A program made the position numbers and the translations under genes. The notes under the pieces are model-generated. The model did no database searches. It was not told where the DNA came from and saw nothing but the letters and a program-made list of their open reading frames with translations. Shown here one piece after another: positions 29,158 through 64,000 of a stretch of 64,000 nucleotides of DNA; within the stretch, counting starts at the first letter, position 1, and each line of letters begins with the position of its first letter. This stretch comes from Ophelia neglecta (taxonomy: Eukaryota), in assembly GCA_965285935.1 (NCBI GenBank), contig OZ260661.1, forward strand, positions 112,530,001-112,594,000, read 5' to 3'.

Positions 29158-29335
29158 CAGTGAAACCTGTGTTTGTGGTCACCTGTGTAAGAAGGGCACC
29201 TGCCCAATAAGGTCAGTTATTAAAAGCCCAATCCCCATTTATGCCCATGTTAACTGGCCTGCCTATTACGGTCACCTGCATAATGTGGTCAGTTTTTTCA
29301 GTCCCTTAACTGACCAGATTAGACATGTTTCACCG
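29158..29335. mobile_element. Tc1/mariner (pogo-like) MITE, CAGTGAAACCT family
   Basis: TA|CAGTGAAACCTGT ... ACATGTTTCACCG, with internal GGTCACCTG repeats. Confidence 0.7.
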
Positions 29336-29738: not shown

Positions 29739-32700
29739 CTAATAAAACAGTCCCAATAGCTTCATGTACCATTTCTTTTCATTAGATTTTTTCCTATTAA
29801 TATCGGGCATACAGTATGCCTTGCAACTGTCCTCTGTCCTAAAATTGTTGCTGTTGCCACGGCAACCCCCATAGATGAATGTTTTACACATTTTGCTGAG
29901 TGGGTCGTAGTGCCATCTCTCTATGCTGGCACGGCATCGCCCCGTCTCTGGCTCCTGAGCACACGCCTCTGCAAAAACAAAAACAAATACAATATAGGCC
30001 TATATAAAGGATTATCGGGGATAAGGGGAGAGTATATGATTCATAATTCAAGGGGGAGCTCAAGTATACGAGTTATGGATTTAAATCACCAAATAAACGT
30101 GCAAGAGTACTTCAATAATTTAATCGAGGTTCTTAACTGAAAGTAATCTAAAACGATTACCTCTTCTTCCGCTTACGACTACCATGTCGACCAACTTGGA
30201 TTTTGTCTTCGGTGGCCTGGGAGCACATTTGCAAATCTCACAACCGAGGTTGTCTTTCCTAAAGCCGAATTTACATTTCTTCAAACAGTTGCGTTCTGGG
30301 CATTTGTTTTTCTCTTCTTCCGGCGATGGTGCGCATTCACATTTATCACATCCATGCTCGTCCTTGGTAAACCCGTGTTCACAGTACATGTAACATGATG
30401 CCCTGGAACACTCGCGGCATTCACAGATTTCACACCCATTATCGTCCTCTTTAAACCCATGTTCACAATACATACGACATTGTACTTTGCTACATTCGAC
30501 TTCTGGTTCCGGTTCCGGGGCGCATTCACATTTATCACATCCTTCTTCGTCTTTGGTAAACCCGTGTTCACAGTGCATCCTGCACATAAAAGGGCTGCAT
30601 TGGTTACATTTACAAATTTCACATCCATTTTCGTCCTTCTTAAACCCATGTTGACAATACATACGACATTGTACTTTGCTACATTCGACTTCAGGTTCCG
30701 GTTCCGGGGCGCATTCACATTTATCGCATCCATGCTCGTCCTTGGTAAACCCGTGTTCACAGTACATGTAGCATGATGCCCTGGAACACTCGCGGCATTC
30801 ACAGATTTCACAACCATTATCATCCTCTTTAAACCCATGTTCACAATACATACGACATTGTACTTTGCTACATTCGACTTCTGGTTCCGGTTCCGGGGCG
30901 CATTCACATTTATCACATCCTTCTTCGTCTTTGGTAAACCCGTGTTCACAGTGCATCCTGCACATAAATGGGCTGCATTGGTTACATTTACAAATTTCAC
31001 ATCCATTTTCGTCCTTCTTAAACCCATGTTGACAATACATACGACATTGTACTTTGCTACATTCGACTTCTGGTTCCGGTTCCGGGGCGCATTCACATTT
31101 ATCACATCCATGCTCATCCTTGGTAAACCCGTGTTCACAGTACATGTAGCATGATGCCCTGGAACACTCGCGGCATTCACAGATTTCACACCCATTATCG
31201 TCCTCTTTAAACCCATGTTCACAATACATACGACATTGAACTTTGCTGCATTCGACTTCTGGTTCCGGTTCCGGGGCGCATTCACATTTATCGCATCCAT
31301 GCTCGTCCTTGGTAAACCCGTGTTCACAGTACATGTAGCATGATGCCCTGGAACACTCGCGGCATTCACAGATTTCACACCCATTATCGTCCTCTTTAAA
31401 CCCATGTTCACAATACATAAGACATTGTACTTTGCTGCATTCGACTTCTGGTTCCGGTTCCGGGGCGCATTCACATTTATCACATCCTTCTTCGTCTTTG
31501 GTAAACCCATGTTCACAGTGCATCCTGCACATAAAAGGGCTGCATCGGTTACATTCACAAATTTCACATCCATTTTCGTCCTTCTTAAACCCATGTTGAC
31601 AATACATACGACATTGTACTTTGCTACATTCGACTTCTGGTTCCGGTTCCGGGGCGCATTCACATTTATCACATCCATGCTCGTCCTTGGTAAACCCGTG
31701 TTCACAGTACATGTAGCATGATGCCCTGGAACACTCGCGGCATTCACAGATTTCACACCCATTATCGTCCTCTTTAAACCCATGTTCACAATACATACGA
31801 CATTGAACTTTGCTACATTCGACTTCTGGTTCCGGTTCCGGGGCGCACTCACATTTATCACATCCTTCTTCGTCTTTTGTAAACCCGTGTTCACAGAACA
31901 TCCTGCACATGACAGGGCTGCATCGGTTACATTCACAAATTTCACATCCATTTTCGTCCTTCTTAAACCCGTGTTGACAATACATACGACATTGTACTTT
32001 GCTACATTCGACTTCTGGTTCCGGTTCCGGGGCGCATTCACATTTATCACATCCATGCTCATCCTTGGTAAACCCGTGTTCACAGTACATGTAACATGAA
32101 GCCCTGGAACACTCGCGGCATTCACAGATTTCACATCCATTATCGTCCTCTTTAAACCCATGTTCACAATACATACGACATTGTACTTTGCTACATTCGA
32201 CTTCTGGCTCCGGTTCCGGGGCACATTCACATTTATCACATCCATACTCGTCTTTGGCAAACCCGTGTTCACAGTACATAAAGCAACTATATATTGGGCA
32301 TTGGTTGCACTCACAGATATCGCATCCATTGTCGTCCTTCTTAAACCCATGTTCGCAATACATACGGCACTGAACTCTGCTACATTCGACTACTGGTTCT
32401 GGTTCCGGGGCGCATTCACACTTATCACATCCCTGTTCGTCTTTCGTGAACCCGTGTTCGCAATACATCAGGCACGATACGGGGCTACATTCAGCTTCAG
32501 GAACGGAAGCACACTCACATTTATGACACCCATTATCATCCTTGACAAATCCATTTTCGCAAAACATCGCACACATTACAGGACTACATTCAGGTTCAGG
32601 GGCAGGGGCACATTTGCACTTATCACATCCGTTGTCATCCGTCTCAAATCCATGTTCGCAAAACATTGCGCACATTACTGGACTGCAATGGGGTCGTTCA

Positions 32701-35700
32701 GCGGTCATGCATTCGCACATGTCACAGCCTTGCTCATTTTTGACAAAACCATGTTCACAATGCATTAAACAATTGTTGATTGGGCATTCATTACATTGGC
32801 AAATATCGCAACCATTTGTGTCTTTCTTGTAGCCATGTTGACAATACATCCGACATTGCATTCTGCTGCAATCTGGTTCTGGCTGTGGTGCACATTCACA
32901 TTTGTCACACCCGTTTTCGTCTTTGACAAAACCATGTTCACAGAACATTGCGCACATAACAGGGCTGCATTCTGGTTCCGGCTGTGGCGCACAAACACAG
33001 AGTTGGCAACCGAGGCTGTTTGATCGATAGCCATGTTCACACTCTAACTCACATTCAAACTTAGCACATCCTACTGGTTGAGGTTCTAGCGCACATTCGC
33101 ACATCTCACAGCCCCTATCATCCCACATGTGACCGTGTTCACACTCAAGGTGACACACAAAGGTACCACATACATTATGCGGCCTCTGGGGAAGGAACTG
33201 TGCCGCACTCTCGTCAGGGTTGCACTCGCATGCAGGACAGCCGAACTGGTCGTGTTTAAAGCCATATTCACAGTACATATTGCAGGTTGGGGGACAGGCT
33301 AGAGGACGAGGCTCCGTGCCAGGTACCCGACACTGACAGCGGTCGCAACCAGAATGGTCCTTCACGTAACCATGCTCACAATGCATATAACACGAAGTAG
33401 GAGGACAGTTTGGTTCACGACAACGACAATTCTCACATCCTCGAGAGTCGGGAATCTTTTCGCAGTCTTCTGGGCAGTCAATGACCCCGCACCGTACCTG
33501 TTCTGGTGCGCAAGCACACATGTCACACCCGTTAACATCTTTCTGGAATCCATGCTCACAATGCATATAACACGAAGTAGGAGGACAGTTTGGTTTACGA
33601 CAACGGCAATTCTCACATCCTCGAGAGTCGAGAAACTTTTCGCAGTCTTCTGGGCAGTCAATGACCCCGCATCGTACCTGTTCTGGTGCGCAAGCACACA
33701 GGTCACACCCGTTAACATCTTTCTGGAATCCGTGCTCACAAAACATTGCACACATGACATCGCTGCATTCAGCCGGCGGTGGGGCACAGCGACAAATCTC
33801 TTCTCCTTTCCCGTCTAGCTGGAAACCAAACTCACAGTGAATAGCGCACTGAATCCTGGGTTGGTCGGCTGAGTGATTTCTGCACCTACAGACTTCGCAT
33901 CCAAAATCATCCTGCTGAAATCCGTGTCGGCAGAACATGGCGCATGCGATGGGCGAACAATGGGGCTCCTCCCGACATTCACATAATTCGCAGCCGTTAG
34001 CATCGTGCTGAAACCCGTGCTCGCAGAACATGAAGCAGGCAATGTCGGAGTTAGGACATGTGGGAGGATCATTACATTCGCAGATCTCGCAACCATTTTG
34101 GTCCATCTTAAAGCCGTGTTCGCAGAACATGTTGCACCGAGCAGGACTACATAATGTGGATCGTGGCGGGGCGTCCTTACACTGACAAAGGCTACATCCA
34201 TTCCTGTTCTGAACATAACCATGGGGGCAGTGCATTAAACATTGAAGGGGCGAACACTTAGGGGAGGAGCACTCACAAACATCACATCCGTCCTCGTCCT
34301 TCTTAAAGCCATGTTCACAGAACATAGCGCACCCGACCAGGGTACTACATTCATTTTCAGCTTCGATCTCGGCGCATTGGCAGATTTCACAACCGTTTTC
34401 ATCTTCGGCAAATCCCTGGTCACAATGCATTGCGCACTGTATGCGGTTGCAGTCAGGTTCTGGTTCGAAACACTCGCAAATCTCGCAGTCGTTTTCGTCC
34501 TTCTTAAAGCCTTGCGGACATGACATCAAACACTGGTTGTCCGGGCAAATGGCCATTACAGCAGGCTCTGTGTTACACACGCAGATATCGCATCCTCTGG
34601 CATTTTTTTGGAAGCCGTGTTCACAATATTTGCGACACATGTATATGCCACAAATCTCGTCCTTAGTGGCGCATTCGCATAGTTCACACCCTCTTCCATC
34701 CTTTTTGAAGCCGAATGGGCATTTCATGGCACAGTTAAGGACTGTAGGACACTGTCCGGCACATCGACAGAGAGGACATCCACTAGAATTTTTTTGGAAT
34801 CCGAAAGGGCAGTCCATATCACACATCACCGGTGGGCACATAGGAGGGTCAAGACACGCGCATGTGTCACAACCAGTGGCGCCATCTACTCTGCGTCCAT
34901 AGGGGCAGAAAATGCGGCATTCGGCATGTGGGCAAGCGAAGTTAGCGATTTTTCGGGATGACAGAGTGAGTGCAGCACATTCACAAGTGGCACATCCGCT
35001 TTTGTCAACCTGGAATCCTCCGGGACACTCCATCATACACTGAACTTCTGGGCAGGAGGCGTCTAAATCACATTCGCAGAGTGGGCAGTCCAACTGGTCA
35101 GTCTTATATCCCAAAGGGCAGTACATATGACACTGGAATGACTGGCAGTTGGGCGGTTCGCGGCATTGACAAGTGTCACAGCCAGTGTCGTCTACCATGA
35201 AACCATGCGGGCATTGATTAAGGCATGCGTTTGCCGGGCAACTGGCGCATTCACACAGGTTACAGCCAATGGAGTCTTTGCTTAAACCATATTCACAGTG
35301 CATGTCACACTCTATCTCAGGACAATGCTCACGAGTGGCCAAGGGAAAACGGTTGCAGGTGCAGGTCTCACAACCAGCATCGTCTATTGTGCGGCCAAAT
35401 TCGCAGTAGATTAAACAATGCTTCAGGGGACACTCTGAAGGAGGGTCTGCACATTCACACAAGTCACAGCCTCTTTCGTCTCTCTTCATACCGTAGGGAC
35501 AGTCCAGGAACTGGCACCCAGTCAAAGGACACGGCTCATCGGCACACTCGCAAATCTCGCAGCCGTGGTCGTCCATCCTGAAGCCATGTTCACAGTGCAT
35601 CAGGCAGGTGATTGGGGGACACTGGTGGGAGGAAGGTATAACAACATCAGACTCAATGCATTCGCAAATGTCGCAACCATTCTCATCTTTCTTCATCCCC

Positions 35701-38700
35701 AACTCGCAGTATTTTCTGCACTTTTTTAGAGAACATTCTACTTCAGGCTGGGACGAATCCCTGGTATTTGGGTCATCGTTACAGACGCATAACTCGCAGC
35801 CGTCCTGGTCTACCTTAAATCCATGTTCACAGAACTTTCTACACCTCTTTCGGTTGCAATGTGGCTTACATTCGCAGACGATACAACCATTTGCGTCCTG
35901 GCGAAATCCGTCCGGACATTCCATGAGGCATTGTATCTCTGGACATTGGGGTGCTGTGTCTGCGCACTCGCAAACGTCACATCCAAGGGCGTCTTTCTTT
36001 AACCCCTTTTCACAATCCATCAGACATGTTATTGGCGGGCATTGTTCCTCTACATTCTTCATTTTCTCATCCAGGGCAGTAACACCTAAATTGGTAGACG
36101 AAGAAAATAATAAAGGCATGCATTTTAAATATATTTACCGGCCAACGGCAATTAACAATATCCTGTTTGTCTTAAACACCCCGCAGCCATCCCCCAGCCC
36201 AACCGTCGCCTGTGCCATGGGCGTAACATATTATTCTTATGGTCGGCTGAGGTTTATGCTTTCTTACTGGACGTGTATACCAAATGGTTGGTTTGAAAAG
36301 TAGTTTAACTGCAATTAGATTTAATCGAACTTGCATTCATGGCAAGATAAGCAAAGAAGAAACCATAAAAATTACTTCTGTATTTTGTGTTCCCCATATG
36401 CAGTTTATATTTACTATGCATGGTTTATATAACCCATGTAAATATACTGTAAACAGACATTTATCTATAGAAGTTTACACAGCAGTGGAGGAAATGACTG
36501 ACCTACTTTAACTTCGGGGCCCCAACAATGCTTTAAAATAGTTTCAATCATACCTTTGCACTTGCGTTCGCAGCGTCCCCTGGAACCGAAATTGTTGTGG
36601 TTGCCTCCACAGCCGCCATAGTTGAAGACTCGACATTCTCCCAGAGAAGAGTCATAGTACCATCGGCGTTCAAATGACTCGCAACTTCCTTGATCGGGAT
36701 CCAAGCGACACCGTTCTTGGTCTGAAAGAAAGTCAATTAGATAATGCTGTCCAAGTAAACGATAATTTAAAGACGCTGGGTAGGATAACAAATAAAATTC
36801 AAATAACTATCCAATATTTACAAATATTAACTATTGATTATTATTGGAAAAGTAGTTTAATTCATTCTTTTGTAGCAAGCATACACCATTGCTGACCAAC
36901 AAGCTGTAGTAGATCAATGGTCCACCAGGCACATGCGCAATGCAAAAAAGCCAGCGTGCACAAACCTATCACTCTAGGAGAATCAGGATTGGGACCGGTT
37001 ATGCATTCTCGGGTACAAGTCGCTTCACTATCGAAACGATTGTCATTCCCTTCACATCCTCCATAGATGAACTGCTCGCAGCGGTTATAAGTTGTGTCAT
37101 AATACCACATCCGATTGTAAGCAAGGCATGGCCCGGGATCTGGCTGGTAGCGGCACGTGTGAAGCGTTCTGGTGTGGCGTCCTGTGAGTCAAATTGAGCA
37201 AGTAAGCAAGCCATAGTAGCAATTTGCCTTTAAGCAAGAAGCGATGCGCAAATATTATTCAATTATTTTCATAGCAAAAGCAACATGCATGAACTGCTTC
37301 AGTATATCCATATGACATCATATAAAAATCAATTTTACCATTAATGAAAGCAGCTACCATACTTCTATCTGTTATGCTACTTACACACCTAAAGGTTTGA
37401 CAAAGTCACCTAGATTTAGTTTTTACTTCTATGAATTTGGTATTACTGTAATGACGTTACATAAATTAATATGTGACATTGCGTGGATTTACGGCAGCCA
37501 TGCGGAGGAGGAAAAGCGAAGTAGTGTACATATAATATCATCGAGGCCCTTGGCTACACACTACTTAGATGATCAAATCTCAATCGGAGATGATACAAAT
37601 GTCTTAAAGTAGCATTTGCGAATTAAATTGTGATAAGCTAGGAATACAAGCAAAGACTATTGTGGCCCCTAATGTGCACGGAATCAAGCGATTTATTCGC
37701 GGCTACTCATGGGGTGCAAACAAGCCGTAGACGAAATTAATTGTGCCGAGGTTAGCCAGAAACACTGATTTATTCCCATTAGGTGCACATCAACTCCTAC
37801 CGCAATATTAGGCGATAATACATCCAGACAATTAGCCGCGTGTGCTTTAAACACCACGGTTGTCTTTTTACTTAAAATACAATGGTATATTGCTTTGATA
37901 CCTTAACATTATGTTGAGATTGTAAGATTCGAGGTTGTACAGAAAAAATCTTGTTCACCGTTTGCTGCAAATATTATCCGAAATGAAGGCACTACATTTA
38001 TAGCACAATTTCATAGAAGTAAGAACTGTTATACAGTGAAACCTGTGAATTAAGACCACAAAAGGGACTGGAAATGCTGGTCTGAATAGGAGGTGGTCTG
38101 TTTAGACAGGTTTATGTATATTGAAAGTGTGCATAATGGTCTTCATTCTAGTGGTCTGACTTGGCAGGTGGTCTGATTATAGAGGTGGTCTTTAAGGCAG
38201 GTTTCACTTCAGGGTGATGCATTAATCAGTGTCGAATATTCTTGAAACACATATCATGCTTGGAAAAAAATGATCAAGAACCCTTTACAGCAAACAGTGC
38301 AAGCCAACATGCTCAAGATCTGCCTAACTATAGTTTACTTTAGATTGTTTCGGTATCTCAATTGTAAAAAATAAATTCATTTGCCGCGGATATTCTCCAA
38401 CATCGTGCGTTTAAAACAAAGAACCTTTGATATTTGTCTAGAACCTTCACACCAAGGACAGATAGCATTACCAGTCCCACTTGAGTTTGGTACTTATAAT
38501 TATAATAACTATATGATATTTGCTGTACATTGCACTATATCAAGCCGGTACATCGGGACATGCGGGTATTTACAGGTATTTACATCTGATAAACAGTGAA
38601 GACTGTGAATTAAGACCTCCAAAGTGACTGGAAACCACTGGTCTGATTTGTGGTCTGAATTGGAAGGTGGTCTGATTATAGAGGTGGTCTTTAAGGCAGG

Positions 38701-41700
38701 TTTCACTGTATATATGTACATGTATATATATAAATTGAACTAGTTCAATGGCCAAGCTCTACATACCTTTGCCTCGGTGTTTCCTTGCCTGACTTGAGCC
38801 GCACTGAAAAGAAACAAGATATAAAGATCCAAATGAAAAAAAACTCGTGAAAGATGCATGAATAAAAACAAATTTTAAGGAGAATATCGTTTTCAACAAT
38901 AAAATGAACAGTAATGCAAAAGTACATTGAAGTATGTATTTCCATTAATTGGTAATTCACTGCACTAGATATTTTTAAAAAGAATTATTGCAGACCAGCA
39001 TCATGCTCGGTTACTTTGCCCGCCTGAACTTGAGGTTAACTATTTTGCTTAAGGGTTTGTTTAACCAACTAAAGGTAATGTTATATCTCATGTTATGCCT
39101 CATTCCAACTAAGCTCAATGAAAGGACTTAAAACTTAAAATTCTACAATAACACACGTTGCAGTAAAGTTCTTGGACTTAAATACGTGGTTTTTATCTGG
39201 GATATATCTAAAACAGTCTTTCGGACGAGCCAATATTACATCGCAAGAATTGACCAAACAGCTGTCAGTGACGTGAATAAATCGTTAGTTATTTTTAACG
39301 AAGGCAAGACGGTCAACACAACACATGTTTATTCTCATGCAGGCCTATCATATACCAGTAGAATTTGCAGTTGTTTTCCACGCTTGCCATTGTGACAGAA
39401 CTATAATGCCCTGGTATGAAGCTGAGGATCTGGTTTCTTTAATGTTATATGTTATAGAATTTCCTATTTTTGTCGAAAAATACAGCACGCTAGCTCACTC
39501 GTAGTGCTGAATTTAATCTGAAAAACGCTTTTCTGTCTCTCACCTGAGCGAAAATGAATAGCAAAATCAGTACCAGTACGTACAAGCTACAATGTGTTAC
39601 CTTATATGTTAGCACAAAGTACATAGAAATCTATTTACAGTGAAACCTGTGAATAAAGAGAACCAAAGGGACCGGAAAATACTGGTCTGATTGCAGAGGT
39701 GGTCTGTTATGACAGGCTATTTAACACTGAAAGTAAACTGGAAAGGCCTCATATAAGTGAGTTGTATTGACAGGTGGTCTGATTATAGAGGTGAATTTTA
39801 AGGCAGGATTCACTGTAATACTTCCACACATTGTGTGCTCGCCCCTATCAACCTGCCATGCTTACACCGGTAAGTTATCATCCTTACTAACTAATTACCT
39901 TGTAAGTAATTAACACTGTGGGCAGGGTGTCAATTAATTGCAATCTTAGGCTACAAATATAGGCTAATCATTAATGTAAAGGATCAAAAGTACGCAATAC
40001 ACACATAAATATAAATCGGTGACAAAGGTGCTAACTGACGTGTTGATATAATTCCTCCATATTTTACACTTCAGATAATCAATGCGATTAAACACTATTT
40101 AGGAAAATGCCATATTGTAAAAATAGGGAAATAAAAGTTAATATTAGACAGGTCACTAGTCTCCGACTTTGGATGTTATGCTTCAGGGCAGTACTCGATA
40201 TGTACCTACAGCAATCACTTCGCTCCCTCCCCCTGCTAGTCCTTGTCACCGTGAATTAATGTATTTAACTCTCTTTGTAGAAGCTGACTATGTGTCAAGG
40301 ACAGTGTGGCGTTGGAATTCAATTGCCGAACTCATATTTAGTGTTTTAATGTTATGGAGACAAAGAACATGTTCTACTTCACAACACGTAATTGCAGGAA
40401 ACGTTAATCATATATAAAATAAGAAATATTATTAAACATAAAATGGGTATATTCACTTCTAAAGAGGGAACATATAGCCTATCAGTTTTTTCAGAAACAA
40501 ATGTCGGTGGCTAATAGACACAATGAAATGTGAATAGCGAGTGCATCGCACACTATGAAACAATAAATTGATATTTTAACGTATAGTTTCATGTGTGTCA
40601 GTCTCCTGCAAAGTAGAGACAGGCCTTATTGCCGTTAACGTTTTCGTTGTGGCTTCACACTTCACTTCACACTTTTGATTTGTGAAAAAGTAATAGCAAT
40701 CTTTGTCCGGACTAAATAATTTGGCTGCCAGTAGCTCGGAATTTTAATTTACATATGGCTGGTGCATGTATTGTAACATGGAAGTGAATTTCTTGCCTAT
40801 TAGTAAAACGATCATGAATACCATATAGAAATAAAATGGAGAAGAAATATATACCAAACTAACCGAAAAAATTCTTTGTTGATGTAGGGGAGAGCGGGGC
40901 AATGTGATATTGTTGTGGTGAATATGGGAATAGGGATGGGAAGGGCCATGACGGGACTATTCTCATTTCGCCATGTAGTGTTTATTTTTTCCCCACTTAG
41001 GCTTTTTAATAACTATTCCATGCCACGGGAATTACCCCTCGTAAATCGAATGCATTCTCTTGAGGGCAAGTTGGACCAGAATGATACAAAAGGATGCAAC
41101 TCTAAAACATCATATAAAGAACAGAGCGTATCTTTGCAACGGTTTACTAAGGTACATAAAACCGAAATTTGCAATACGACATCATGTATAGTTAGGGCTG
41201 TTATATAAATGTAAGATCAAACATGCACCGGTAGGCCTATGTCACAAAAGGATAACCTGTTTTGCCTCACATTTTGTCCCACAGACGGGCCAAACCAAAA
41301 CGAGGCGTTTCAAGTTCCAGCTGGGTAAGGTTAGATATGTCTTTGCATCGCTTAAAGGTATATGAACACTTGCATGTTACGCCAGAAAAAAATTGACAGT
41401 GTTTTTCCGTCGACCCAGTAGCCAAGAGGAAAGCTCTTTCACTAATTTTATTCGGAATTGTTAATACGATTGAAAGCACCGTTCAAAATATATTCCGATA
41501 TGGTTTTTCATTGTTCTCAGTTCGTATATAAACAATATTATTTACAGCAATAAAAGCGTTTTGGTCATCTGTAGAACAAGAAGAAAAAAAATGACATGCC
41601 AAAAATATAAGGCATGTCATTTTTATGGTATCATACACACAGCATGGTTAAACAAACAATATGAATGAACGGGCTTGGCGGCGGCGGCGAGGGGGGGGGG

Positions 41701-42360
41701 GGGTAAAAAAATGCCGTTGTTTATGGTGATAAGTATATAGTTTCCTTGGTTTAATATGAGTACATTTTGTTATTCGCATGATTTATGTGCACTGGTTAAA
41801 CAAAGATAAGGTTGAAGTTGAACAGAGATTCATAAAACCCTGGGTTATCTTTGGTACAATTCAGCGCAGGGGATATTGGTGATAACTCCTCAAAGATAAG
41901 GGGCAACTTTGAACAATTGACTGAGGGCACTAAGATAAGACCAAAAATAGTCTAGTCCAAATCAGTGCATTTGGCCTACTCTAATCTTAGACAGCACCTC
42001 GATGACATTATAAACAATACCACACGCCTTTTTTATGCTGATTTGTGTTTCTTGCCAAGGATTCTGATTAAAACCTAAACATAATTATCTGTACACACTC
42101 GCTATATAACATTAGTTTTAATGTACTTTGGATGTTTAGAGGCTCGTTGTCAGAGTTTTCCCCTATCAAAAAGCCCAATACTTTTTAAATATATGTTTAA
42201 GGTAGAAATGAATATTTTTTTCAATAATGCCGATAAGCGAGAAAATGAAGCACAGGTGTACACACAGGACCAGAGGGATGGTATTAAAATGTGAATAGTA
42301 AAGAAGCAATCTTACCAAAACTCCAAGGAGCAATGCCACTGCTAGCAATTCTAGCTTCAT
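29739..42360 (-). CDS. Secreted giant multidomain protease-inhibitor-like protein: signal peptide, Kunitz x2, 60 antistasin-like repeats, Kunitz (about 2,206 aa)
   Basis: Exons 42360-42316 (MKLELLAVALLLGVL), 38803-38767 (CGSSQARKHRGK), 37181-36966 (Kunitz 1), 36721-36554 (Kunitz 2), 36085-30161 (5,925-nt antistasin array) and 29968-29739 (Kunitz 3, absent from the ORF track: CAQEPETGRCRASIERWHYD..FIYGGCRGNSNNF..C..YC). Total 6,621 nt, all GT-AG and in phase. Minus-strand AATAAA at 29498-29503. Confidence 0.9.
30333..32222 (-). repeat. Coding higher-order tandem array: ten 189-bp units (two antistasin repeats each) alternating as 378-bp AB-CD super-units
   Basis: Near-identical DNA units. Order along the protein: ABCD ABCD A'B ABCD ABCD AB. 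The 378/567-bp spacing of the shadow ORFs agrees. Confidence 0.93.
33369..33730 (-). repeat. 180-bp coding tandem duplication (60 aa) in the antistasin exon
   Basis: Sequence at 33369-33549 is repeated 180 bp later (CEHGFQKDVNGC..CGVIDCPEDCEK..CPPTSCYMH). Confidence 0.9.
38034..38209. mobile_element. CAGTGAAACCT-family MITE
   Basis: TA|CAGTGAAACCTGTGAATTAAGACCAC ... GTGGTCTTTAAGGCAGGTTTCACT. Confidence 0.8.
38594..38708. mobile_element. CAGTGAAACCT-family MITE (internally deleted)
   Basis: CAGTGAAGACTGTGAATTAAGACC ... GGTCTTTAAGGCAGGTTTCACTG|TA. Shares a long block with the copy at 38034. Confidence 0.8.
39638..39815. mobile_element. CAGTGAAACCT-family MITE with a TA TSD
   Basis: TA|CAGTGAAACCTGTGAAT ... 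AAGGCAGGATTCACTG|TA. Confidence 0.82.
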
Positions 42361-46065: not shown

Positions 46066-49000
46066 TCAGCTTTCTTCGTCTTTTTCCAGCGCTGGATTGT
46101 CCACTCCTAACTCTTCATCGGATACTAGGTCGGCTGCAACATAAGTTAAAGGTCATGGTTTATAACATGGACGCTTAGCGCTGCAAAATTCCAAATATCC
46201 ATGAGAACAGAATCAGAGGATAGCAGATGAAGACAACAAGCCTTACTTGTATCTGCCGTACGCGGGTCAAGGACTTCCGGGTCATTTCGGCTGAACCTGA
46301 CCGACTTTCGGCGACTTTTACCACGTGGCCTTCGACCTGCATTTCTTGTAAGAGGTCGTGGTCGCAAGGGGCGCTTTCTCCTAGAAAACATATTTGAGAA
46401 TATGTGATGAATAGATTTTAAAACTCGTACGAACCTGTCATTGTTAGCCTGATTAGATACCGAAATACTATCGAATTAGCTGCAGGTATCAAAGCATTCT
46501 TATAATAGAAGGTGGTAGGTTGATTCTGTCTGCATTCGACATTTAAATATTCGCTAAGTGCAAAACGTGAATATGAAACGTGTGTATTATATTTGATACT
46601 TACTTTGCCTGGTATGTCCGCCAGACAATTTCAACGACCAATAAAAGGAAGAGCAAACTAAAGATCACGGACAGCACCCCGATCACCACTGAGATAAAAG
46701 TAAATAATACTTGGATAGAAATCAATCACCATCCAGACTTCTCACAATATGTCTCCGATTGTAATTACAAACAGCACATTGAGGTCATTGATAAGTTTTT
46801 GAGACGCAGGGAATCTAGGTGTCGCCAAATGGAAGCATACACTATAAATTACTCTGGGTGAAAAAATCGGAAACTGTGTTAATGTGTTAATTAAGAGTCA
46901 ACGAGGCATTCGGAAAAACCGACAAGTTTAATTGTAGCTTCCTAAAAACCTCACGTACTTCTGATAATATTTTTACACTGTTGAGTCTAATCTATAGACT
47001 ACTGGCTACTGAGAAAAAAAAATTATGTATTGTTCGTAGACTTCTTTAAGGCATTTGACATTATAGAACGGCACATTCTCTTCCATAATTAACTCGGGAC
47101 TTCATTGCAGGGTCATGGATACGTTAAAGGTTTTTATCATAAAACCAAATTCCGTTTAAAATGCAAGGAAAGGCTAAGAACATTGGTCGAAAACACGATC
47201 GGTGTCAACCAAGGACTAAGGTTAGCATCGACTTGTTTAGGAATATGGGTGGTGTCGAAAAGTGGTGTCTCTCTTTTGGAGAGAGTGCACCTGCAGTATC
47301 GCAAACAAGAACTGGGTGCCAAATCATCTACCTGAACTCTGGCTATTTATGGTGAATGTGGTGAAAGATTTTGTGACGTTTTGGCTTATGGTCTAAAATG
47401 TGGACAAATTATATAAAAAATAGCAATTATTATTGATATCATGAATTGGAGTATTCCATAGAATCGGGCACTAAAATATTGACTATATGTGAAAAACGAA
47501 GCAAATTTATAGTTATAATTGATAATCTGAAGCTGATTTTGTTGATTATCTCAAAACTATGAAATGTCTCTCCGGCCATTTTGGCATTAATCGGACGATA
47601 TATATTATTAATGGTCCAACAGTAGTGTGATCTCTGGTGGTTTTGTCAGCTAGTCACTTTTTTGTGTGGGCGGTGGTCATTACGGGGAAAGACATAGAGA
47701 CATTGATGTAGAATGTCTGTTTGTTCGCATTGCTAGCTTGTGTTGTGTAAATATATACTGCATGCAATATTCTTGTGATGTGTCGTTAGTAACTATTTAC
47801 CAATGGTATATATTAAACAGAAATAAAAAATAAACTTAAACTTGAACTTGTACCCCCCCCCCCCCCCGCCCCGCCCTATCCTCGTAGAACATATGATTGT
47901 GTCTTCAAAAAATGAGACTAGTTCGGCCATGACAAAAGAATTGACAAGTAGGCCTATCGTACGATAGATATAGGAATAATACTTACACCCCCACGGAGTG
48001 TCACAGATGTTATCTGTACACCTGGAAAATAAACACTTCACAATCAGGACATGTCACCTCCTCAGATATTAGCACGATTTTAAATTATAAGAGTAAATAA
48101 CGAAGAAATAAAAACAATCTTTTAATTTTCCTTTTAGAGGATAAAACGTTGAAAAATGAGACCAACCCATAACGGCGTTTTCGGAATGCTAATATGAGCC
48201 TTGGTTTCTCTGCAAGATAGATGTGCAAAAGTGTGAAAAGGAGAAAGTTGTCCGAGTGACGGAACGAGGCTCCCCGATGATCGTGCGGTGGATAATTTTT
48301 CTAATACTACTGAGGTGTATGCAACTATTAACTTGTAAACAAGAAACCCCATGCATAAGAAAATATCACACTGAGTTTTATACTTTCCTGTGTTTTACCA
48401 AAATGAGAGCACCAGCTAAACTTTGTGAATAAGTGCAATGTAGATATAAAGATCAAGAAAAAGGGTGTTACATCAATGAAGTGGACAGTTCTGAAAATAC
48501 ATGCAAAGGAAAACTATCATGACAGCAATGGTGTTAAATGAATGTGACTAAACCAAGAGAGAGAGAAACTAAAACCTTTGTGGATGCTGTTGCAACGATA
48601 ATTAATCATATTTATAACATTTTAAAATGTGTTAAAGGGCATGCAATAATTGGTTGTGCAACACAAAATTTGACATCTGGATTCCACCAATTGAATTTAC
48701 CCGGAAGATCTCTGCGCCGATGGTCCTGATATATTTCTGTTGGAAATTGTTTGGTTATCACCAGTAGTGTTACTGTATATAGTGGATGTTTCCAGCGGTA
48801 CCGATGAAGATTGGTCTACTGTAGCATTTTCATCCAGCACAGTCCATGAACCAAATGGAGTTTCAGTTTTGGAAGTCGACTGCGCATCAGTGACTGTCAT
48901 ATTGAGGGTAGTAGTATCTGCAGTTTTCGAATTCTGAGCAGATGGTGTCGAAATGCTTCTGCTGGAAGTTGTTTGGGTATTGCCAGTAGTGTTATCGTAC

Positions 49001-52000
49001 TCAAATAAAGTGGAAGTTTCCAGTCGTCCCGATGAAGTTTGATAGTCGACAGTAGTGTTAATATTCAACATAGACGACGAACCAACCGACCACGGCATAT
49101 CAGTTTTGGGAACAGATTTCGAGCTAGTAGTAACTGTGATTCTGGGAGTAGTGGTGACTTCAGCTGACGATTCCTGAGCTGATGTTCCCGACACGTTTCT
49201 TCTGGAAGTCATTTGGTCATCGCCAGTACTGTTATTGTACTCAAATGAGGTTGACGTTTCCAACCGTGCTGATGAAGTTTGGTAATAGTCAGTGGTGTTT
49301 TCATCCAACACAAATGATGAACTAAATGGCGTTTTGGAAACTGACTGCGAATTAGTGACTGTGATTCTCTTAGTAGTAGCGGTGGTAAATGAAGCTGAAA
49401 GCAGGTTGTTAGAATTTATGCAAAATATCACATGCTTATTAGAATCATCTACATTTCGACAAAAGTGGGCCGTTACTGCAGCATTTTCAAAGGGGGAACA
49501 TTACATTTCTGGAATGAAGCCAGAGTTTGCCATGTAATTCTAAAACCAGATTGCAAATTCCTCACGGGTGTCCCAAAAGATACAGAAATGAAATTTAATA
49601 TTCCGTGACAGCAACGGGGATGAACGTACTTTATGTCTAAATCACATGTTATACAGACAGAATAATCCTTTAGTTCTACATATGGCTATTTACGCAGTAA
49701 AATATTGCTTATGCTCTTCCTAGCTATAATCACCAATAGATTAATGGAAGGGGGATGCCTGTTTTACTGTAACAACATTCCTTGAATGCCATCTTGATAT
49801 GACAACCACCTATAAGTGTACGTAAAAAGCATAAACTTGTCGTCTGTTCCAATTTAACGACTTACCAATTCATTTACTGGTGCTATGATTGATCTTTAAT
49901 TTAATAACCCAAACCTAAGCCATTCATTTATTCCATCAGCATTTTTCACTGGCTATAAATCGGTTTGGGTAGGGTTACTATAGAGTATCAGGCGATGCTA
50001 AGAGGTCAATGTAGCTTTCACCATATATCTTTTGCCTACGTCATTAACACGATGCCGATTGACCTCCGGTAGAGGCGCCACGGCTTGGCAACTGAGTTAC
50101 AGAGTTTAGAATACATATTCATCTTTATCATCAAATAGCATGTCTTGTTCCGTTTGCTGCCGGAGTTTGATCAACCCAATGAAACGATGTGTTGTTTATA
50201 TATGCAAGATATAATTTGCGAGTAACCACAGATATAAATCGTTATTTTATTAGATAAAACAAATACTTCAAATGAGACAGACAATTTTACTGCATGCCGA
50301 AGTATTGTTAATAATGGTGAATTTGGTGAGAATTTTTTTTTTTTTTGGTTCTCAAAAGTTACAATTCACATGACTTTCATTTTCGAATACATGACAGGGA
50401 AAGAAGCAATCGAATTTAGCAAGATAACTTAACCACATCAAATCAAGAGTCTCTGAAGTGGGCACATTAGCATTCAAATTATGTTACCTACAATTGATTA
50501 TGAAACACTATTTACCATGTAAGAAACACACTAATATAATAACCTACCTTCACATTTGCGGCCAGGAAAGTTTTTATCCTCAGTTTTATCTCTATAATCT
50601 AAATTGCAAACGCAGTCGAAGTAACCTATTTTATTGTAACAGCTGGCAAATTGATCACAGTCGTGTAATGGCGGAGATATGGACGGGTCACACTCAATAA
50701 GATCTATAAAATAAAACCTTTTGTAATTGTATATGTGCATTTTCACTGGGATCCAAAAAAGTAGGGATTGGAAACGATGAAGACCTTCAAAGAAACTACA
50801 AAGTTGGCCATCGTTTGTGTAACAAGATCTGTTTCTTGTATCCCAGATTTTCATTTTCATTTACGAATTGGTCTCTATCATATCTAGAGCAGGCTCGTTA
50901 CACTGAATGGAGGAAAATTAAGTAAATTCATAAAGGTATTATTACCTCCAAGTGTAGCATTAAAGGGTTGTGGAATGTACATTCGGCTCTCCCCAAGTTC
51001 ACCGCCATACCTGTGAATATTCATTAAAAAAGCAATTAGTTGATTGACATGTTAACGTGGTGTTTGTTTTTTAATAAGAAAAATAGAAAACACTTACTGA
51101 TAAATAAAATCCATGAACTCTTCTAAGACCTCACCGAGACGAACTGTCTCGTTGGACAAGAAGTAGATGGCTACTTTGACCTGGACTCCCGGGTCAGCGT
51201 TAGCCACTGATATTAGCCTACTGCCCCGGAAGATGCTGGCCAAACTCCCATTAAGAAATACTAAGTTTACCTGGCAAATGGGCGAAATGGAAATAGGTTA
51301 CAAGGAAGGAATGTTCATATACGCTTGTGTTAAATGGCCATTCTTTGTGGCTGCAATGCATCTGGATATCTTCAAACCGATAAGCCGATAAACACAGTTA
51401 TAAACATAGACACAAATAAGTTAATGGTAATACCCCAGCTTCTTCTATCCGATTGAAAAAGTCCGAGTCGTTTGTGAGAGATGGGGAGTAAAGGAGGGGG
51501 AAAATGTCGTAAACACCATGGTATTCTGTCAAATCAAACTGCAAAACTAGAGATGTCGCACCTGTACAAAATAAAAATAAATAACAAGCATTAAAAAATT
51601 ATATAAACAAGCCTTCAAATATTAAAATGCAAACAAGTTTGACATTAATTAAGTATTTTATATATAAATAAAAGACTAACATGAAACATTGCATCCTTGT
51701 GTGTACACAAACTAGATACATGCAGACCAGGGACTAATTTTCATTTACTTTCTGAGAAATGGAGATATGTTAATGCATTAGTCTATATGGTTAATATGAT
51801 CTATTTGCACAGACATGTATGTACATTTGACAATTTGCCGTGGTTTATATATGAGTTGAGAAACTGGTGGTAAAACTAGAATTTTAAAGCCACCCGGCTG
51901 GCAGTATTAAAATCATTCAGCGCTATCAGAATATATCTTTTCGTTCCCCAGCGGAACACAAAGTCATTATTTATGCAGCCTAGGTGATTAGTATATTTTA

Positions 52001-55000
52001 TGTGTCCAGGTACCGCTTCGCTTAATGTCTGCTTTTTCGTATTTGATCTTTCCAACCATTTCATATATCATGTGCAGTTGGCATTCCAAAAGTGCACCAC
52101 GACTCGTAAAAGTGAAAAATTAAGAAAGAGAGAAATTGGATTTGCATTTGCAGGAAGTTTGGTGGTGATTAATGTCCACTAAGTGATCTTACGTTCACAT
52201 GGAAGGTCTCTGTGTGTTCTGGTGAACCCTCCGAGACACTGACACCTTCCCTCGCCGTTTACCTCTACACACTGTGTGTTGGTGTCGTTTACACAGTTCT
52301 GTTTGGTCTGGTTGGTGAGGTTACACCAGGCGCCGAGGGTTTCCTCCCGTGGGATATATGGAGGAAGCTTGGGCCCTGTTAGACAGAAGAAAATAAGTTT
52401 AACCAGTGTGGCCAAAGACAAGAGTTGTCTTCATTGCTAATCTATAATATGACACCTGTTATACTCAGGTACGCCACTTAAAATAAGATACTCCCATGCT
52501 TTTCCAGTGTATTTCTTATTAATGATAGTAAATTGTATTAACCTATACTATTGTTTTAATAAAAAAAAATACACAATATATCTTTCTCAAAATGCTACCC
52601 ATTAAAATTAATGATAACCCAAAAATACCAAAGTGGAACTATTTTCATTTTATGACAAATGTATATCACCATGATTAATTAATCTTGTTTTAGAGGAGTA
52701 AAACGCACCGCGTATGTTTCAGGGCGCAGGTTACCACAAAGGAGATATGATCTAGGTCAATCCTATAAAACTTTTTCGTTTTTACTGGAACTGGAGTTCT
52801 TTTCATTACAATATTTTTATTCACAATAGACTCACTGGCTAAACACATTGTGCGGTTTTCGCTAGGGGCGAAACCGTAAGAGCAGATACATTCTCCGGCG
52901 GTAGAGTTGAGGCTCAGGGCACACTCGCTATTGTTAACTGCGTCATAACAGTCCAAGTAAGTCTCACAGGTACTACCTATTTCTCCTGAAAAGAGCCGTA
53001 CAAAACACGAGTCAATAATTATATGGCAAAAAAAGAAAGTATACAATATTTAATTGTACAAAAAAAATGCACACAGCCTGTTCTAGAGAGGGGTATTGGG
53101 AAGGAATCCAAAGGGAGAAATATAATAGGTAGAACGTGATGCTGAGAGTAATCTCTAGCAACTAACTTGCTGCAAGTGCTCTAACAATGTGATATGATCT
53201 ATTGCAACAGCTATTTGAATCTTGGCTGGATATAGTCTATCTTTAATGTTAGTCGTTTGACCTTCCTCGATCCTTCAGTAACAACCAACAGCTGACTTCC
53301 CCATCAATCCACTGGTAGTTACGTTTGCCAAATTATATTCAGTATTATTCTCCTGAGCCCGAGATGATGCTCAGCAATCCCTTGCATCGGGTCTAACTTA
53401 GGTTTACCCATTACTCATAAAAAGTGGAAGCGTCTGGAAGCACTTTTGAGTTTTGATAAATGCCTACGGCAGGCCCGCAATCATTCTACGATGTCCAGAA
53501 ATGGGGGTTATCGTATCGGTGTTCCTCTCTCGACACCATTGCAATCAGTGACTTCAAGGGATTCCCCAAATTCAGTTAATGACCCTTCAACCTTTTTTTG
53601 CGGTGTGTGTATGGGGGGGGGGGGGGGGGGGGGGCTTATAATTGCGGGGAATATTTGGTAAACCCCTCCACTCTGCCACGGCAACGCAACTACCCATATA
53701 TACTTGGTTGTAAATAAAAAAAGTAAACCTGTTTGTATCGAGTGCGGCAAGGTTAATGCATCGTATTTGCTTGGAATAATGTTATTCGAAATTACAGGAC
53801 ACATCAAGGCAAAAAACTAGGTTTTCTATAATATTTTTATCGCTTAACAATTCGTGATGTGCCTAGATCAACATACATCTTTTAATGTCGTATGTTCGCA
53901 ACTATAAATTAGTCGAAATACAACAAGCAGAACCCGTTGATTTGAACCAGAACACATTTAGGCCGTATTACTCACTGAGGTAACAGCCAACAGAAGAGGA
54001 GTTCACTGCGAAACCAGACGGACATTGGCACGTGTGGTTTAAGCAGACGCTATAGGTCAGTATGGAGTTACAGTCACTATCGATGCCACAATGATCTCCG
54101 AGAATTCCTGGAAGTAAAGGCTGCTCAGTGTAACACGAATTATATCTGCAGGGGCAGTGAGAAGACTGAACAGCAGAGCACAAATGTTAAAATTACAAGC
54201 TGGCAAAAGACACGAGTCTATTTATTATCAAGTGATGCCTCGACTGTCATAAAGTAATATTAACGTCAACATCTGTATGCAATATCTACATTTCTTGATG
54301 AGGCCACCGGGAATACCATATCGTTTGTTCTAATCTACGACTTCGCAGAATAATAAAAATACCATAACATTTGAGTTTCTTGTGATACAGAAAATGAATA
54401 ACATACGGGCAGTGCAGCCGGAGAAATCTGTTGTTGCGTAATATCCGGGCGAGCATGCGCAGTACATCTGGTCACATACGGAATTACTCATGGCGGCCGA
54501 GCAATCTAAATCTATGGCACAAAAGTCTGTGATCTTTCCTGCAAAGGAATTGTTTAGTTACATGACAATCTCGTTCAATGGCGATGAAATAGTACATTGT
54601 GATGTTAACTTCGGTTTTTAACATATTTTCGACATATTTTGATATCCTTTCCCATGTATAATTTCAAACCAATAATCTCAATTATGGTGCCTAATTGAAT
54701 AATAGATATATATATAAATATCAAGATTCTAACCGTGTATCTTTACTATTTTATGTAAGTGACACTATTGAACAGTTTAAAAGTCAGAACTGGCTTTAAT
54801 ATAAAGTGATTGATCGATATACTAACAGATATTCGCCAAAATACTAGACTATCTTGTAGATGGAAGACTGTCTTAAAATAACATGAAAACTATATAAATA
54901 AAATTTTTACTTTTACCAGCTGCATAAAGTCTGGAGACTAGTTGCGCGAAAAAAACTACTCGTAGCATCAAATATGTAATCTATGCATGTGTGACGCGCT

Positions 55001-58000
55001 CACATGGTGAACGCTGATTGGCCCAGAAAGCCAATGACGCTTGGCCTGCTTTCGGCGATGACGTCACCACCAGAAGGCAGAGGCACCCAGGGACACAGTG
55101 CTCTGGCAAAAAGCGTCACTTGCCTTCGGGTTTAAATAGGGCAAACGTCATACATAGCAAACCAATTAGAGGCAGCCGTTTTTAAACACACCAATTACAA
55201 ATAGGCAATATGTGCGTCAGCAGTAGCTTGTGCACACTGTTTTCTAGTAACGTATGATTTAAAACCTTTTTTTTGAAAGCCTCCAGACTCTATGTGGCTG
55301 GTATAAAGCCACGTTGTAAATCGTAAATTTAATCAAAAGAAGAACTTACTATGGCCTGACTATACGCAGTAAGCTAGACTGTTGAAAGTGAGATGGATGG
55401 AAGTAATATTAGTTGTGTTAGGTATAAACAGATCCAGGCCTTCCTAGAATTAAAGACACGTGTTCAAATCGAAATGTGTTACAGTAGATGAAACAAAATG
55501 TGCAATGTGAATCAGGTTGAAAATATGTTCAAGAGATTTTATTTGATGTTGAGACTATCGAAACATCATGTATATATGTTGGTGGTTATTTTTGGGTGTA
55601 TCACCTCATGTACACGAGAATACTTTTGTTTTTGTGTGTGTGTGTATATTTTCAAATTTGGGACGGCACAACCAGATCAAAGACTTGATTCGAAGATAAG
55701 CTATGCAGATGTTTTCATGACAAACTTAATGGTGTACAATTTCCGACTTGGCTTTATTTTGATTGAAATTCTCAAATGATGGCGTTTGATGGCGTCATAA
55801 AATAAGGTTATAGCCAACTAGCAAGAGATTATTTAAACCTGAATCTTTGATGCATCCGCTGGCAAAATTATTTATAAACAGGCTTGTCTTTCAGATGAGG
55901 TGGCTTGTTTTGCAGGCCAGTTGCAGGTAAACAGGATATTGACATCTGAGCACGGAGATGGCGGGCTCAATGCGTAGACAGAAGGCGCATTTACAGTAGT
56001 TTTATGTGTCCCACAACAGCAATACTCGGTGTTTGGTAATAAAAAAAGGAACTTGCACGAGTGATCAATAGGTTTTTGGCTAATAATTAGGCAATAAATC
56101 CATCGTCTAAAGTGCCTGACTTTCCTTGGGCAGTTTTTTTCCTGCTAAACCATGCACCGGAGTCGTCCTGCTGGGATGAGGGTTGACCGGAATTGCGCAC
56201 AGGTAGACATTCTCATTTCATGCTAAGGTGCACTTATTTCGAAGGTTTCAACAGATTACATGCTACAGGTGCATTTCGTTTACCCAGATCATACATAACC
56301 TATATGTACTCCTTAATGACACATACACTGCTTTGATCTGGGGCCTGCATCCTTGAAAAATGACGCAGGCATGTCTCACGAAAGTCGTTCGTGAAGAATG
56401 ATCTTTGCTCATCACAGATTAACTGCCTTATCAAAAGTATATCTGGTTCCAAGGGGATTAAAGCCAAATCAGACGAGCGAGCATAACTGACTTTATTCGT
56501 ACCAGTCCTCCACCTAGATATATGATGACCTGCCAAAAAGCGCATTTGTTTACTCATAGCCTATATCGATACCTGCGAAGAGCTAGGCATTTCAGTGTTA
56601 CTTTCAATTGGCTAATCAGTCTCTTGTTTGAATTATACAATAACTACTGTGTAGTTTGTGTACACCGCGTTAGCTTCTCTTACAATAAGATAGAGAAGTC
56701 CGGAGCGAGATTTATGAAAACCAATAAGTGGTTACAACCTAGGAACCGGGTATATTAATTGCTTCTCTTACCCTGGGTTTTCATAACTCACACGCTTAGA
56801 TAAGGAGTAACTTAAGAACTCGCGAGTGAATTTTTGAGTCTTCGAACAAACATGGGCTGGATTGATTGACTTTGCTAGGATGTCGGGTGTGGATAGCTAA
56901 TAGTTTGACTGGTGTCTTGTCTTGCCTTGGGGAAAAATCTGCAGGCTATCAGCGAAGTCTGCTTCAATACTATCAAAATAACGCAGGGCTGCGTATTAAT
57001 GGATGCCACGCGGGGAGAAAGCTTCTAACCGCATGCAGCGCTTGCGCTAATGCCTACCCCAGGTAAAAAACGGACCCACTTTTGCTGATAAGCAGATCCG
57101 CTGGCGAAAAACCGGGCACTCTTTCGACAGTTCGAGTGTATAGACGTGACGTTATACAAAGGGTACTTCGGAGAAAGGTTTCTTGTTTCGATTGTTAGGA
57201 TCTTTAAACGGAAGGTGCGTAGACACTCAAGTTGATGCCAATTCACTGGGATACTTTTACTTTACCAAATATTTCTCAAGTTTTCGGCTTTGGTACAAGG
57301 GAAAGAAATAATTGCCATCTGAAAAAAAGGAGGGAAATGACCGAACTATATAAGACTCATCGATGAATGGTTTCTCCGGAACTGAATGAAGGTGAGAAGT
57401 AGATATTCAAGAGGAAAACTTCCTCGATGGATGATTGTATTTGCTGTTAGTTTTTATTCACACTATATTTTTCCTGTTGGGGACTGATGTAGTTTATATC
57501 TGAGATTGGCCGTGTATCTGTATATACGCTACACACCAAAGAGTAATATAAAGCTAATATCACATGGGATATATCATCGATTGTTCAAAATACAACATGA
57601 AATTCAATGTTCAACAGCGGTAAATATCACAGTAGAAGTTTTCTTGATATCGATAGTTGATAGTTTTCCACACGGTAAAATAAGAAAATATGCCTGTATG
57701 AATTGCCTATATGTGTACCGTGCCTATATGTATTGATGTCTTGACGTTTTCTCTTTTCAGTTTATTTTGCTATTAAGTAGTTTGTTAGTTAATACTGAAA
57801 TTTTTTATACTGTCGCCGGAAATAAAGAATAATGAAAATTAAGAGAATCACGAGCAAGGCGATAACGATGATTTCTACAACGAGAATAGTGACGTCACGG
57901 AAATCTGTGTTCCAACAGTGAGTAAGATCAGTGCTGTCCCAGTAACCTAAATCGCATGCGCAATGACCAAGCTGGCAATGACTGTTTGACATAGCATAGA

Positions 58001-63851: not shown

Positions 63852-64000
63852 CTGGGGAGTCACATGAGTAAAAGTACAACGATTAAAACAAAACTAGCAC
63901 ACTTTCAGCCAACTGCAAAGAGCAAGTTAGTTGTTCTATATTCAAGTGAAAATTTCTTCTTTTATTTCTTAGCAGATCAGGGGAGAGTGATTCTTGGAAG

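Follow-up and report, generated by a model that had tools for sequence, protein, structure and literature searches.

A gene on the minus strand of the window, the 64,000-nucleotide stretch of Ophelia neglecta DNA analysed here, contains an exon for 60 antistasin-type modules, of which modules 40-59 form a block of ten near-identical 189-bp units. From the observed unit structure, coding frame, synonymous bias and mosaic variants of this block, we infer that it probably arose by nested tandem duplication of two-module units through several past unequal crossovers and short conversions, and that purifying selection thereafter kept the units nearly identical at the protein level.

Gene model and predicted protein

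The six-exon gene model was built on splice motifs and sequence alone (Table 1). All five predicted introns are of the GT-AG type and keep the frame, and the predicted product is a secreted protein of 2,206 aa with the order Kunitz-Kunitz-(antistasin)60-Kunitz. The frame of the large exon was matched by the Pfam antistasin model (PF02822; MEROPS I15) in 56 stretches (1284 bits, E = 0). The six-Cys pattern, with a spacing of C-x4-C-x3-C-x10-C-x2-C-x-C, identified 57 modules, which together with three atypical ones make up the 60; when the Pfam model was run on single modules, module 23 was matched alone and module 27 was not. The three exons flanking the array, two upstream and one downstream, matched the Kunitz/BPTI family (PF00014) with 67.7, 69.0 and 75.3 bits at a cut-off of 21.

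A phmmer search with the four-module ABCD unit of the block matched leech antistasin (1skz, E = 1.9e-9); the Cys-Arg of the unit is aligned to that of the leech protein, in which the Arg is P1 of the reactive site. Bdellastasin, guamerin and hirustasin were also matched, and all five hits were of the antistasin type. The modules contain six Cys only and do not form the ten-Cys domain with two subdomains of the leech type. They share with the antistasin family the tandem arrangement of 25-28-aa six-Cys modules like the C-terminal subdomain of leech antistasin, the location of P1 after the second Cys and the secretion of the product, which is predicted here. The six-Cys-only arrangement is also that of Hydra antistasin (Holstein 1992), as described in PMC7851590. 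Characterised members of the family have 2-6 modules, as compared to 60 modules and three Kunitz domains in the present protein, for which inhibition is predicted.

Table 1. Features of the antistasin-type gene, in positions of the window.
Feature	Position	Strand	Remarks
Open frame without stops	30120-36134	-	2,004 codons
Exon 1 (predicted)	42316..42360	-	Hydrophobic signal-peptide-like N-terminus, judged by eye
Exon 2 (predicted)	38767..38803	-	37 nt
Exon 3 (predicted)	36966..37181	-	Kunitz domain 1
Exon 4 (predicted)	36554..36721	-	Kunitz domain 2
Exon 5 (predicted)	30161..36085	-	5,925 nt; all 60 antistasin-type modules
Exon 6 (predicted)	29739..29968	-	Kunitz domain 3 and stop; further splice possible
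Diverged modules 1-31	32991..36041	-	P1 of 12 kinds, P1' mostly Met
Modules 24-28, separate young duplication of 180 bp	33370..33741	-	96% identical
Intermediate zone, modules 32-39	32223..32969	-	99-bp monomers, (A/Q)PEPE linkers, two older two-module units
Modules 40-59, homogenised block of ten two-module units of 189 bp	30333..32222	-	AB x6, CD x4
Module 60, terminal, diverged (68%)	30225..30302	-	Escapes homogenisation

Several other features were observed in the window. Dispersed MITE-like elements of ~175 bp lie at 29158, 38034-38209, 38697 and 39638-39815, several of them in introns of the antistasin gene, and have a common 12-base inverted end (6 matches versus 0.27 expected). A foldback-transposon-like element of ~2.4 kb, with arms of ~400-480 bp that are 98% complementary and hold 42-bp sub-repeats, is located at 3553-5915. 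The minus strand also contains a mucin-like, Ser/Thr-rich open frame of 267 aa that is internally repetitive and matches no Pfam family (48697-49500), as well as one or more arrays of Cys-rich EB-module exons (52180-63900), among which an ORF at 57789-58346 has a signal-like N-terminus and a transmembrane-like C-terminus.

Structure of the homogenised block

The block is tiled exactly by 189-bp units (TRF period 189, score 2871), each of which consists of an APEPEPEVE linker, a module, a 2-aa linker and a second module. Read from 32222 to 30333, the order of the units U1 to U10 is AB CD AB CD A'B AB CD AB CD AB, corresponding to a 378-bp higher-order repeat with one break in register at U5/U6 (31466-31089). 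Pairs of AB units differ at 2-8 of 189 bases and pairs of CD units at 2-10, whereas AB units differ from CD units at 33-37 bases. Copies of the 378-bp repeat differ at 6-17 of 378 bases, and the multimer copies are more alike than their constituent monomers, as in higher-order repeats generally defined. Our comparison of the units confirmed what a sequence-only reading of this DNA had proposed, namely ten near-identical 189-bp units arranged ABCD ABCD A'B ABCD ABCD AB and joined by APEPEPEVE linkers.

The same reading had called the repeat satellite-like, a label that does not apply: satellite DNA is non-coding, high-copy and free of protein constraint, and the block consists of ten in-frame coding units at a single locus with pN/pS values of 0.016-0.15. 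The reading had also pointed to an amplification of Arg/Tyr-P1 modules. The P1 residues of the 20 block modules are indeed Arg in 13, Tyr in 6 and Leu in one, but this enrichment is a by-product of the copying of one four-module unit. We therefore rejected the Arg/Tyr counts as evidence of selection, since the copies are not independent.

Recombination and build-up of the block

Self-comparison of the sequence yielded long diagonals at shifts of 189, 378, 567 and 945 bp. The four-gamete test identified 5 incompatible site pairs among the six AB units, and the CD units, four in number, had none. The variant states shared by U5+U6, U3+U6, U5+U8, U1+U10 and U7+U9 are in conflict with any single tree. 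The suggestion that the units have undergone unequal crossing-over or conversion is thus upheld. Because of the four-gamete conflicts and the several diagonal shifts, the best reading is unequal exchange in several registers combined with short conversion, with recurrent mutation only partly excluded. Such exchange between repeats is what defines intragenic concerted evolution of the VERL and spidroin type. The tree inferred from the DNA of all 60 modules was mostly unresolved, with good support for 7 of the 55 inner branches; module 33 grouped with the C modules (98/90) and module 34 with module 39 (98/99).

In the history that we propose, 99-bp monomers like those of modules 32-37 would have given rise to a 189-bp dimer, as seen in modules 33+34 and 38+39, two pairs from which the 189-bp unit of the block probably derives. 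Two diverged dimers would have combined into the 378-bp ABCD unit, from which unequal exchanges in more than one register would have produced the ten units; a 567-bp AB-CD-AB duplication would fit the doubled AB at U5/U6. The units at the edges (U1, U2 and module 60) would have been the least homogenised.

Divergence along the array

On average, modules 1-31 are 68% identical to their nearest neighbour, modules 32-39 are 80% identical and modules 40-59 are 98% identical. Over all 60 modules, identity is correlated with position (Spearman rho = 0.81), and the age gradient of the sequence-only reading is recovered as three steps, but there is no trend within modules 1-31 (rho = 0.20, p = 0.28). 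Its division into highly diverged modules 1-31 and intermediate modules 32-39 agrees with the mean identities, except that the former include the young duplication at modules 24-28, which holds two atypical 24-aa six-Cys modules without the conserved Gly. Likewise, amplification at one end describes the main block, which is located in the C-terminal third of the array, but describes neither this second duplication nor module 60. The 3' edge of the block is abrupt, with the diverged module 60 following directly after the zone of 98% identity, so that the block is sub-terminal. The pattern along the array looks stepwise with edge effects rather than like a clean one-ended conveyor.

Reliability of the unit count

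It is highly improbable that the number or order of the units is an assembly artefact, a risk to which the sequence-only reading itself had drawn attention, even though the array is spanned by no read or contig and is collapsed in the Logan contigs. False copies would be identical or carry random errors; here every unit is distinct, exact repeats reach 146 bp at most and 17 of the 23 differences among like units are synonymous, a bias that assembly errors would not produce. High-identity matches to the 378-bp unit were found in the genome only at this locus, and no second near-identical copy of the gene or haplotig was present among the candidates scored in the same genome.

Depth was estimated from three sequencing runs (X1, X2 and X3), which were compared as contigs and represent one sample, possibly the source of the assembly. 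We calculated read-word depth as depth divided by the assembled copies of the same 31-mers, which is a rough check and not a true copy number. For nine pieces of the array, the depth per assembled copy was 38 and 43 in X1, 12, 10, 10, 9.5 and 4.9 in X2, the last two being for low-copy pieces, and 30 and 35 in X3, as compared to 35-36, 13 and 25, respectively, for short single-copy contigs. The depth roughly fits ten units, which excludes gross collapse or inflation and would allow an error of one or two units. Two further signals were dismissed. Contig joints that resembled a rearrangement came from a single-copy contig aligned on paralogous modules. Loose ends at 30671 and at 32320-32326 that could have been insertions have motifs found 21-22 times and twice, respectively, in the paralogue at 71.3 Mb (see below) and never in the window, and thus represent reads from the paralogue.

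Sequence divergence and selection

Among like units, the 17 synonymous changes contrast with 6 nonsynonymous changes (10 versus 1 for the AB units alone). The synonymous share expected from site counts is 16-24% (binomial p = 2e-9 to 7e-7 for transition weights of 1-4). The uncorrected NG86 estimates were pS = 0.135 and pN = 0.002 for the AB units (pN/pS = 0.016), with pS falling to about 0.09-0.11 when transitions were weighted, and pS = 0.117 and pN = 0.018 for the CD units. Overall, the synonymous divergence between like units is about 9-13%, which is ~15-20 times the allelic level. The latter was estimated from 5 synonymous and 7 nonsynonymous variants in the single-copy parts of exon 5, corresponding to 0.5-0.7% of synonymous and 0.2-0.25% of nonsynonymous sites; these are 12 of the 16 exon-5 variants in one sample, the four inside repeats having been dropped.

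Since synonymous divergence between units so exceeds that between alleles, the near-identity of the units at the protein level is largely owed to purifying selection. The synonymous-to-nonsynonymous contrast between units and alleles did not reach significance (Fisher p = 0.08). The block is not of very recent origin. Some of the differences between like units may be conversion imports from older modules, which would inflate the apparent age: column 86 of U1 and column 38 of U3 and U6 match U0 or CD states. The closest pairs of units are only 2 synonymous bases apart (p about 0.03 for each pair when compared to the allelic rate), and the youngest events behind these pairs may still segregate.

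The sequence-only reading had taken the amplification to be ongoing, in which case the block could be an active coding minisatellite that gains and loses 189/378-bp units between alleles. We consider this rather doubtful. With units that are 95-99% identical over 1.9 kb the block offers a ready substrate for such turnover, and the closest pairs and the mosaic variants are in line with it, but the absence of identical units, the shortness of the longest exact repeat and the synonymous divergence all speak against it. Divergence per codon is also ~6 times that of a 2,459-bp repeat in the 71.3-Mb paralogue (6.8% versus 1.1%). The depth in the single sample roughly fits the assembled count, although one X2 contig piece (30937-31019) is at half the expected depth. 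According to PMC2704960, abalone VERL arrays with >95% identity vary between ~20 and 22 units among individuals. For the block, the present-day variation in copy number that the sequence-only reading had expected is plausible. Duplication in the past followed by purifying selection remains our preferred account of the block as assembled.

Inhibitor or scaffold

Judged from the sequence, every module of the predicted protein would expose a canonical reactive loop with P1 after the second Cys, and the block would supply 13 sites of the trypsin type (Arg) and 7 of the chymotrypsin/elastase type (Tyr, Leu) to what would be a broad-spectrum, extracellular, multi-headed serine-protease inhibitor. 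The 31 canonical modules outside the block have a variable P1 and, in 23 cases, Met at P1', which suggests a multi-headed inhibitor. An AlphaFold model of three units, computed without an alignment, was unusable (pLDDT 54, pTM 0.20).

Alternatively, the modules could be a disulfide-rich structural scaffold of mucus, tube, cocoon or matrix in which length itself is selected, a reading that bears on function and could go with either history of the block. The block is acidic (150 D/E versus 73 K/R in 630 aa) with Pro/Glu spacers, and two papers describe a leech cocoon protein that consists of antistasin-like repeats (PMC7851590) and antistasin domains in limpet mucus (PMC7333891). We regard a scaffold as unlikely given that P1 is of 12 residue kinds and P1' is mostly Met, like in canonical inhibitors, and that three Kunitz domains flank the array. 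Furthermore, of the 5 amino-acid changes that distinguish like units, 3 affect the reactive loop, one of them being the P1 change from Arg to Leu in the A' unit; this excess is not significant (p = 0.09). An inhibitor is the function that we favour.

Paralogues and homologues

Two related genes were identified on the same contig (C1). One is a paralogue on the minus strand at C1:71313553-71331889 with at least 74 antistasin modules and a Kunitz exon. It contains about five copies of a three-exon repeat of 2,458-2,459 bp, exons and introns included, which are 99.1-99.6% identical also in the introns, and the repeat is itself composed of sub-repeats of 993 and 1,466 bp. The four copies compared were 9-22 bases apart and had synonymous differences in 1-6 of 379 codons and differed at 6-15 of 1,321 intron bases. 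The divergence of the 2,459-bp repeat is thereby close to that between alleles. Counted per codon, this repeat is about six times younger than the 189-bp block, and it is the better candidate for copy-number variation. The other gene, on the plus strand at C1:68305652-68325900, has 17 Kunitz motifs and 22 antistasin modules, with exon-plus-intron blocks of about 680 and 1,550 bp that are 91-93% identical. A 40-bp satellite lies 3' of this gene (C1:68330530-68333270).

We also surveyed 159 retrieved proteins, of which 42 had at least 8 modules. Homogenised blocks, defined as at least 4 modules each at least 90% identical to another, were present in 7 of the 42: P0022 (ENA), P0018 (Antedon), P0032 and P0003 (Anneissia), P0016 (Patiria), P0095 (Oscarella) and P0008 (Dimorphilus), the named ones being from crinoids, a sea star, an annelid and a sponge. 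As in the gene studied here, runs of near-identical modules lie beside diverged modules, but the blocks, which are known from proteins alone, are shorter and none shows a four-module order. In P0022 (797 aa), nine modules are in perfect two-module alternation of Ala and Arg at P1, which is an independent higher-order repeat. The largest number of modules by the same six-Cys pattern among the 42 homologues was 33, as compared to 60 here. The protein searches yielded no one-to-one orthologue from a close relative, with best identities of 25-61%.

A more far-reaching hypothesis would join these observations: at least three genes on one contig would have come to encode giant inhibitor chains through successive rounds of higher-order duplication (189/378 bp in the window, 2,459 bp at C1:71.32 Mb and ~680/1,550 bp at C1:68.31 Mb), the copies would at once be tightly purified with few allowed changes in the reactive loop, such as that of Arg to Leu at P1 in A', and the copy number of Arg versus Tyr heads would be a polymorphic, selected dial against the proteases of pathogens or predators. 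Taken as a whole, this hypothesis is speculative and has a small chance of being right.

Comparison with other repeat proteins

In involucrin, the early, middle and late repeat regions are ordered and additions are sequential along the segment, whereas the array described here is stepwise and has a second young patch. The involucrin repeats are of 10 codons and low complexity, unlike the folded domains here. According to PMC2192633, repeats have been added to primate and mouse involucrin within one coding exon, and their length is polymorphic.

In abalone VERL, homogenisation extends over repeats 3-22, which are >95% identical and variable in number (PMC2704960). As in the present array, one end is diverged and the rest has been homogenised by conversion or unequal crossover; VERL differs in that 20 of 22 repeats are homogenised, are of a single type and have a demonstrated length polymorphism, as compared to one third of the modules and a two-level AB/CD order here. 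In the spidroins, purifying selection together with recombination keeps the repeats similar, with Ks values of 0.008-0.076 (PMC3563967). The spidroins AcSp1, MaSp1 and TuSp1 also have intragenic repeats in a single giant exon, and the Ks of the MaSp1 and TuSp1 repeats (0.057-0.076) is of the same order as the 0.09-0.13 observed here. They are, however, structural silk proteins with the whole array homogenised, and AcSp1 is far more uniform (Ks 0.008). PMC5120217 states that new repeats are generally under relaxed selection, a trend from which the block departs since its young copies are under strong purifying selection (pN/pS about 0.02 for AB). In the literature searched, which covered few subscription journals, no higher-order repeat in an antistasin array was reported.

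The block is a further case of intragenic concerted evolution like that of VERL, the spidroins and involucrin. It probably arose some time ago by repeated uneven crossovers and has been kept uniform by selection, a common way for repeat proteins to form and unlike the growth of a runaway satellite. Because this process is well known, and common in the antistasin family, the block serves as a good example and directs attention to a younger array in a paralogue, and reveals no new mechanism. The example would be a clean, fully resolved case of the growth of an inhibitor from monomer to dimer to tetramer and on to a block of ten units, in which the precursor modules still adjoin the block.
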